From a virus (lineage: Duplodnaviria > Heunggongvirae > Uroviricota > Caudoviricetes), in IMG/VR virus record IMGVR_UViG_2548877010_000018: a stretch of DNA of 14,811 bases; one strand, written 5' to 3'. The notes under the pieces are model-generated. The model made no database searches, was not told where the DNA came from, and saw only the letters and a list, made by a program, of their open reading frames with translations. A program made the position numbers and the translations under genes. This document shows, in pieces, positions 14,130 to 14,604 of the stretch. Position 1 is the stretch's first letter, and each line of letters starts with the position of its first letter.

Positions 14130-14185
14130 CCTCGCACTCGCGGGGATTTCTTTTATCTGAACTCGCTACGGCGAGTTTTGTTTTA
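14130..14185 (+). terminator. Two tandem intrinsic terminators
   Basis: Hairpin cctcgc-actc-gcgggg plus atttcttttatct (14130-14156), and hairpin aactcgc-tacg-gcgagtt (perfect 7-bp stem) plus ttgtttta (14160-14185). Confidence 0.6.
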
Positions 14186-14197
14186 TGGAGACAAGAA

Positions 14198-14542
14198 ATG
14201 TCAGATTTGGCTATGAAGGTTTTGAAATGGCAATCAACTGGCGATGTCGGCATCAGTAGCGCAACTCTTGCCTCAATCGCATGTGGCCTGAAAAAGAATA
14301 TCTATGGTCATGGCTTCGGTGCTCCACATGACGCAGCCGATTTCAGACGATGCGTTGCACTTGTTGAGCAGATTCCAGAAATCAGAGATTCATTCGACAA
14401 GGTTGCAAAGCGCGTTCCGGCATTCAAAGGAATCCTCAACGAATGGGATTCCCTCGTTGCTCTGTTGAAGTCTGAAATGAAGATACACGGAAACAAAGCA
14501 CCAGAGACTTACAGAAGAATCAGCGAGCTACGCAAGGACTAA
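14198..14542 (+). CDS. Hypothetical protein (114 aa)
   Basis: ORF with SD-like ggagacaag upstream of the ATG, bracketed by terminator hairpins on both sides; no family recognised. Confidence 0.55.
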   Translation: MSDLAMKVLKWQSTGDVGISSATLASIACGLKKNIYGHGFGAPHDAADFRRCVALVEQIPEIRDSFDKVAKRVPAFKGILNEWDSLVALLKSEMKIHGNKAPETYRRISELRKD

Positions 14543-14543
14543 C

Positions 14544-14604
14544 GCCTCACACTCGATGAGGCCTGTTCATATCTGATAGAGCCGCTATATGGCGGTTTCT
14601 TTTT
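14544..14604 (+). terminator. Hairpin pair / intrinsic terminator downstream of the 114-aa ORF
   Basis: Perfect 6-bp stem gcctca/tgaggc (14544-14562), then hairpin ccgc-tatatg-gcgg with extended wobble stem followed by tttctttttg (14579-14604). Confidence 0.5.

Follow-up and report, generated by a model that had tools for sequence, protein, structure and literature searches.

The early regions of the Stx2-converting phages 2851 and 1717 (Pankowvirus) are 99.9-100% identical to the window, the whole 14,811-nucleotide stretch of DNA analyzed, and on this identity the window represents the pL arm of a 2851/1717-type Stx2 phage. Its + strand shows, in this order, a pL-like promoter, boxA-like and boxB-like elements, an N-like gene, the cIII/kil/gam/bet/exo genes, the exo-xis genes, ORF114 and xis. 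The exo-xis accessory genes located upstream of ORF114 encode DksA/TraR-like, Ea22-like and DUF551 proteins, among others. The features at the promoter end and around ORF114 are the following:

6042-6070, + strand: pL-like promoter, TTGACC-17-TACTAT (promoter scan)
6116-6129, + strand: boxA-like element GGCTCTTTAAACAA (read from the sequence)
6148-6161, + strand: boxB-like hairpin UGGCUGAAAAGCCA (read from the sequence)
6188-6532, + strand: N-like antiterminator gene (annotated as "anti-termination protein N-like")
14127-14158, + strand: predicted terminator hairpin 1, stem and T-tract, counterpart of predicted lambda t3 (terminator scan, fold)
14159-14186, + strand: predicted terminator hairpin 2, stem and T-tract TGTTTTAT, counterpart of predicted lambda t4 (terminator scan, fold)
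14187-14191, + strand: Shine-Dalgarno GGAGA of ORF114, abutting the T-tract, 6 nt 5' of the ATG
14198-14542, + strand: ORF114, 114 aa, ATG start
14544-14562, + strand: hairpin GCCUCA...UGAGGC right after the ORF114 stop codon (fold)
14579-14608, + strand: predicted terminator hairpin and T-tract before xis (terminator scan, fold)
14620-14811, + strand: AlpA/HTH_17-type excisionase gene (Pfam and PHROG matches, record annotations)

The fragment 6042-6161 (+ strand) shows two small hairpins, GTCGACTCTCGAC and UGGCUGAAAAGCCA, just 5' of the N-like gene. The strict boxA pattern YGCTCTTWA has no occurrence in the whole window, and a nutL-like region behind the candidate pL, assigned from the lambda consensus, is probable. 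By analogy, the region 6042-6532, containing the candidate pL, the nut-like elements and the N-like gene, is presumed to drive the expression of ORF114. At the other end, the window closes with the final base of the AlpA-type xis gene, and the integrase gene lies past this end, on the opposite strand and convergent with xis, whose 3' end it overlaps by 20 nt; in relatives it is found at 7197-8375 of locus L001 and at 3172-4350 of locus L004. The pL operon contains xis only, with int outside. Between the DUF551 gene and the tandem hairpins, a 29-aa ORF (14007-14096, + strand) encodes a strongly hydrophobic peptide (MMPPVKVVIITLVMIVIARIMSGEIVWIW). The stop codon of the DUF551 gene shares bases with the ATG of this ORF (ATGATGA), so the two genes may be translationally coupled. 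A "lipoprotein" feature listed by one record somewhere inside the matched region 13600-14811 may correspond to the 29-aa ORF.

The first-pass annotation had placed the ORF at 14198-14542 behind two tandem terminators and just upstream of xis. Both hairpins were confirmed by scan and fold, and the gene at 14620-14811 is indeed an excisionase of the AlpA/HTH_17 type. The hairpin at 14127-14148 shows a 9 bp stem (dG -13.1 kcal/mol, z -6.07) and the tail TCTTTTATCT, and the one at 14159-14178 shows an 8 bp stem (dG -11.9 kcal/mol, z -4.22) and the tail TGTTTTATGG. The two hairpins described 3' of the ORF are both present and only one of them is terminator-like: 14579-14598, with a dG of -10.5 kcal/mol and the tail CTTTTTGCCT. 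The other one, 14544-14562, has seven pairs, a dG of -8.7 kcal/mol and a tail (CUGUUCAUAU) lacking a T-run, so it is not a canonical terminator; it may terminate weakly or stabilize the 3' end of the transcript. The GC-rich stem-loop followed by a T-run of Rho-independent terminators is found in 14127-14148, 14159-14178 and 14579-14598, and not in 14544-14562; the terminator activity of the flanking hairpins is predicted on this basis. The Shine-Dalgarno GGAGA of xis (14609-14613) is directly 3' of the T-tract of the last terminator. On sequence grounds, the terminator 14579-14608 is part of the AlpA-type xis module, and HK022 and lambda show a different terminator at the same position before their own xis.

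The region 13500-14811 contains five terminator-like sites, compared with 0.8 +/- 0.8 in shuffles, and gave no match in an Rfam search. ORF114 is not singled out by its flanking terminators, since terminator-like hairpins are located along the entire pL operon (+ strand of 6000-14811), at 6831, 6977, 7417, 10955, 11550, 14127, 14159 and 14579. Bidirectional terminators also serving the convergent int transcript were considered and rejected, as the minus-strand tails of the hairpins are not T-rich. Within 14540-14811, the minus strand offers the int transcript no convincing terminator, the sole candidate being a weak 5-bp stem at 14635-14622.

ORF114 matches PHROG 1229 with an E value of 3e-51, its residues 1-114 being aligned with profile positions 1-113 of 116. 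The 58 distinct alleles obtained from 87 copies show a pN/pS of 0.065, which indicates strong purifying selection, and the variable sites are distributed as 12/4/37 by codon position. The exact protein is found on at least 1000 contigs, where its name is always hypothetical or "prophage protein". In the record of phage 1717, ORF114 is annotated as "hypothetical" and noted as similar to HK022p30 and to ORF114 of phage 434, and the HK022 copy (HK022_32), which shows 97% identity to the window protein, is annotated as "N15 early protein homolog". Judged from sequence, ORF114 is a genuine protein-coding phage gene, strongly conserved and already catalogued. No published study on the protein was found in the literature searched; Gp05 of phi24B, modelled by Donaldson (PMC8614690), was considered and is a different protein. 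The region 14100-14620 is covered to at least 80% in 735 of the 5426 complete E. coli genomes, and 2462 show any match to it, the partial matches often consisting, among those sampled, of the hairpin element alone.

Part of ORF114, 94-100% identical, is also found in many chimeric E. coli prophage proteins (P0015, P0017, P0031, P0035, P0049, P0051 and P0053), whose partners are fragments of a dATP/dGTP pyrophosphohydrolase, Erf, Ea22 and Kil, and phages P27 and phi419 retain only residues 1-56. These chimeras and truncations look like intragenic deletion or recombination joints in decaying or mosaic prophages.

The statement that the protein has no recognisable motif stands for Pfam, NCBIfam, PADLOC and PDB, and fails for PHROG 1229, a full-length match that has no function assigned there. 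Searches of ORF114 gave no match in Pfam and NCBIfam, nothing at E <= 1 among the PADLOC defense-system models and no match in PDB by sequence, either with the single protein or with the profile. Pfam assigned 0 families to 68 diverse members of the ORF114 family. An exhaustive profile search retrieved 2858 representative clusters (50% identity) with the cut-off at E <= 1e-3, and 659 of them remained when it was set to E <= 1e-10. The AF2 model of ORF114 is all-helical, with seven helices, a pLDDT of 93.7 and a pTM of 0.87; the protein shows neither signal peptide nor membrane segment, and a soluble helical domain is predicted. Foldseek of this model found no fold match in PDB (best E = 4), so that PDB gave neither sequence nor fold match of any kind, solved anti-defense folds included. 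In BFVD it found uncharacterized phage proteins only, among them one of Clavibacter phage CN1A; a Sylvanvirus protein also matched weakly. The homology and structure-prediction check proposed with the first-pass annotation thus did not identify ORF114 as a known directionality factor.

The family has a polar/aromatic set of invariant or near-invariant residues (kept in 129 or more of 135 aligned domains, or unchanged across the alignment of 68 sequences), namely W11, G18, S20, S21, P43, D45, D48, R51, C52, P60 and W83, all of them present in the window protein; L55 is conserved likewise. Several of these residues belong to motifs found where a helix begins: S-S-x-T precedes helix 2, D-P-S-D precedes helix 3 and P-E precedes helix 4. 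In the model, they could cap the helices, form a site for a phosphate or ligand, or do both. The family also contains longer members. P0067 (333 aa) shows two tandem ORF114 domains, and in P0172 (558 aa) the domain follows, at the C-terminus, a nucleotidyltransferase of the CCA-adding/poly(A)-polymerase type that includes an HD domain. The members of one subfamily, about 190-205 aa long, share a conserved extension of about 90 aa at the N-terminus, and the AF2 model of this subfamily is poor (pLDDT 65.6). The extra regions of ten longer members show no Pfam or PHROG annotation except in P0172, whose fusion was dropped as a clue to function because it is too isolated.

Homologues of ORF114 are found in lambdoid and P22-like phages and in phages of Mannheimia, Arthrobacter and Clavibacter. 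ORF50 of PY54, a linear-plasmid prophage, shows 50% identity, adjoins an exonuclease gene and is near a Dam methylase gene; the PY54 stretch viewed around it has no annotated integrase. Vibrio podophages, apparently lytic, carry a homologue, and the Mu-like phage SuMu has one in its early region. No integrase annotation was found near the homologue in the stretches of PY54, Vibrio podophage and SuMu examined. In metagenomic phage contigs, the neighbors of the homologues are genes of the early type or of DNA metabolism, encoding RtcB, thymidylate kinase, DNMK, a DUF3799 exonuclease, an SMC-like ATPase, RecT/YqaJ and methylases, and no constant partner gene emerged across the neighborhoods viewed. 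On plasmids, a gene of the family with 27-32% identity is carried by 110 Pseudomonas records, those sampled being megaplasmids of about 370-520 kb. In pR31014-IMP, the Pseudomonas record examined (L223), the homologue is beside orphan DNA methyltransferase genes and a divergent int/HTH pair (about 200 bp). The conjugative Burkholderia gladioli plasmid bgla_3p (L224) also contains a homologue.

The predicted lambda terminators t3/t4 (Table 4, PMC4195576) are near-identical to 14121-14190 of the window, and in lambda they precede orf55, without ORF114 (PMC4195576). The hairpins at 10955-10977 and 11550-11568 (+ strand) are within 1-2 bases of the predicted t1/t2 of lambda and phi24B (PMC4195576), and because of this match the whole exo-xis terminator set would be common to these phages. 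The layouts were compared in a four-phage alignment containing the window, mEp234, HK022 and lambda. Lambda shows t3/t4, orf55, t5 and xis; HK022 shows t3/t4, an orf55 homologue, t5, ORF114, the post-stop hairpin, a further terminator and xis; and the window and mEp234 show ORF114 directly behind t3/t4. The homology between HK022 and the window breaks just past the post-stop hairpin. The joints of the cargo fall in a common string, T-tract-(T)GGAGA (TTTTAT(T)GGAGA), which is also present at orf55 of lambda and HK022. Since the HK022 insertion, relative to lambda, brings its own downstream terminator, the pattern of terminator, Shine-Dalgarno and gene is regenerated. By this alignment, the T-tract/GGAGA junctions coincide with mosaic breakpoints where the cargo differs between phages.

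The same arrangement was found in 80 IMG/VR loci containing ORF114. All 80 show a terminator, a T-tract and (T)GGAGACAAGAA upstream of the ATG, with the GGAGA Shine-Dalgarno kept in every one, and the terminator is of the t4 type in 35 loci and of the t5 type in 45. The GCCUCA...UGAGGC hairpin is present 3' of ORF114 in the downstream variants listed for these loci, the change in its stem being wobble-compatible (GUCUCA). By its sequence distribution, the post-stop hairpin moves together with the ORF114 cassette. A search for the tandem hairpins gave 119 usable viral contigs (loci L104-L222). About 80 of them have an orf55-type gene as the first ORF behind the pair and about 19 have ORF114 there; 13 show a 99-aa ORF and three show an 83-aa ORF. 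The xis partner of ORF114 differs by contig and is of the AlpA, TorI or lambda type. The P22-like Salmonella phage SPN9CC shows the same tandem hairpins before a homologue of 62% protein identity. On these comparisons, the tandem hairpins and the pre-xis terminator belong to the slot and not to ORF114: because the same pair precedes varied cargo across phages, the hairpins would be a slot fixture and ORF114 one passenger among several. The alternative ORFs located right behind the tandem pair encode proteins of 99/101 aa (M(IM)ACSTFNPLTLQ...) and 81/83 aa (MQPINIQP...), and those between orf55 and xis encode proteins of 123 aa (MAVFYWRQ...) and 71 aa (MAAIHIVS...).

A consensus scan, the only promoter search applied to the + strand of 13500-14811, found no sigma-70-like promoter there. 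The T-tract of the second terminator ends at 14186, 11 nt before the ATG of ORF114 (14198), and the xis unit is built alike, from a terminator, GGAGA, 6 nt and ATG (14579-14622). As the hairpin, T-tract, GGAGA, 6 nt and ATG are contiguous, there is no room for a promoter between the terminators and ORF114. A promoter within the T-tract was considered and rejected: on manual inspection it shows about 4/6 and 3/6 hexamer matches, without the conserved A2, and its start site would delete the Shine-Dalgarno. In the lambda pL operon, many terminators are overridden by N antitermination. With no room for a promoter, read-through from pL antiterminated by N is most likely needed for ORF114. The dependence on antiterminated pL transcription, which the first-pass annotation proposed as one option next to an undetected promoter, is thus the natural reading, given that no promoter was found and that only GGAGA and 6 nt separate the T-tract from the ATG, and it follows the lambda paradigm. 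In phi24B, the genes downstream of one predicted exo-xis terminator are well expressed (Bloch et al., 2014; PMC4195576), so that a non-canonical promoter or leaky termination is possible at ORF114.

By analogy with lambda, it is likely that ORF114 is a delayed-early accessory cassette located in a slot, with N-dependent expression and with the hairpins as slot fixtures. The cassette would be promoterless and delayed-early, consisting of a ribosome binding site, the ORF and a 3' hairpin, and its site would be the last, polymorphic cargo slot of a lambda-type pL operon, between t3/t4 and xis. RNA polymerase modified by N would pass the two terminators from pL, and ORF114 would be made only after infection or induction, being silent in the lysogen. 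The hairpins would stop transcription not modified by N short of xis, and blocking this read-through would matter in this phage, whose int has a separate transcript from the opposite strand. Related phages would swap cargo (orf55, ORF114 and others) at the common T-tract/GGAGA junctions.

Three other explanations were weighed against this one. The hairpins could be mainly recombination boundaries or mRNA 3'-end or processing signals, with ORF114 co-transcribed with the pL operon regardless of N at that point. The exact coincidence of the hairpin and GGAGA junctions with mosaic breakpoints agrees with this, as do the much higher conservation of the hairpins than of the ORF (near-identical before the 62% homologue of SPN9CC), the lack of a T-run in the post-stop hairpin and the good expression of phi24B genes past a predicted exo-xis terminator (PMC4195576). 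However, three of the four hairpins have canonical GC stems and T-runs, all are oriented with the operon, and terminator and boundary roles are not mutually exclusive, which makes this explanation distinctly unlikely. It is very unlikely that ORF114 is an accessory of site-specific recombination, modulating Xis, Int or the excision decision, even though it is directly 5' of xis in the window, HK022, mEp234 and P22-like phages. Its homologues with 30-38% identity are 1-5 genes from an integrase gene in three distant, unrelated temperate-phage contigs, and another is about 200 bp from the int and HTH pair of the Pseudomonas megaplasmid. Against such a role, ORF114 is freely combined with xis genes of three unrelated types, and with the integrases that go with them, instead of being co-inherited with one type, the lambda-type slots are mostly without it, the family is present in PY54, the Mu-like SuMu and Vibrio podophages, and the protein shows no family or fold match to Xis, AlpA, HTH_17 or winged-helix proteins; in addition, the far end of the early-left operon is in any case where temperate phages put accessory genes. 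The distance between homologue and integrase, 0.2-1.5 kb in several distant temperate phages and a megaplasmid, still leaves a little room for a link of ORF114 to integration or excision.

Morons, a concept of Hendrix and Juhala for lambdoid phages, have their own promoter and are expressed from the prophage. ORF114 resembles them as one additional gene that brings along a hairpin and a terminator downstream and is inserted in HK022 between genes that are adjacent in lambda, with its boundaries at intergenic junctions, and it is near the att end of the prophage, a common place for conversion genes (such as gtrA/gtrB beyond int in SPN9CC). It differs from them in showing no detectable promoter on the + strand of 13500-14811 and two terminators directly upstream, into which an upstream promoter would fire. 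Its relatives are found in apparently lytic Vibrio podophages and in many early regions, where conversion makes no sense, and the protein, a predicted soluble helical domain, has no signal peptide or membrane segment. We therefore regard as highly improbable that ORF114 is moron or lysogenic-conversion cargo, autonomously expressed from the repressed prophage and altering the host phenotype. The first-pass suggestion that an insulated unit at this place points to lysogenic-conversion or regulatory cargo is not supported, given that the hairpins are slot fixtures, present in lambda without ORF114, and that the homologues in PY54, SuMu, Vibrio podophages and Actinobacteria phages mostly have no integrase close by.

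With ORF114 as an N-dependent delayed-early cassette, the best guess for its role, weakly supported, is an early lytic or establishment accessory function on a broadly conserved target or ligand. The candidate targets would be nucleic-acid or nucleotide metabolism, or counter-defense, and this guess is based only on the gene neighborhood and the taxonomic breadth. A role in excision control or lysogenic conversion is unlikely: homologues are present in non-integrating phages and in apparently lytic ones, most of them with no integrase close by, which speaks against conversion of the lysogen and also against a function tied to an integrase. More speculatively, the domain could be an unrecognized class of early effector, in which the invariant S-S / D-x-x-D-x-x-R-C cluster, placed at the N-termini of two helices in the model, binds or modifies a universally conserved ligand or macromolecule; we consider this rather unlikely. 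If it were true, ORF114 would be a new counter-defense or host-takeover function, the ligand being, for example, a nucleotide signal or a factor of nucleic-acid or DNA metabolism, and the class would comprise the 2858 clusters, found in phages of both Proteobacteria and Actinobacteria, in Pseudomonas megaplasmids and perhaps in giant viruses.

The distal exo-xis segment of lambda and that of the window share near-identical tandem hairpins, the T-tract/GGAGA junction, the place before xis and a leftward operon of the pL/N type. Lambda carries orf55 as its cargo (55 aa, with a beta-rich model; PMC4195576, PMC8614690), whereas in the window it is the unrelated helical 114-aa ORF114, and HK022 has the orf55-type gene and ORF114 in series. 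The window also differs from lambda in its AlpA-type xis and its inverted int. The likeness to the lambda pL operon with its multiple terminators and N consists of the series of + strand terminators, the N-like gene and the boxA/boxB-like elements after a pL-like promoter; the N protein of the window is of the Nil2/Stx-phage type, unlike that of lambda, and antitermination at these sites is assumed by analogy. ORF114 of phage 434, HK022_32, ORF50 of PY54 and PHROG 1229 belong to the same protein family, and none of these members has a function assigned to it. The layout around ORF114 is ordinary lambdoid operon architecture with modular cargo exchange.

ORF114 has been catalogued without a function since the sequencing of phages 434 and HK022, and its regulatory layout is of the textbook type. 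What is clarified here is that its flanking terminators are, on the comparisons above, slot fixtures common with lambda, and that xis would stay behind N-dependent read-through. The interest of ORF114 is in the size, conservation and structural orphan status of its family, which has no Pfam family and no solved relative. As a compact, confidently modelled and widespread protein, it is a cheap and well-defined target for screens of phage dark matter.
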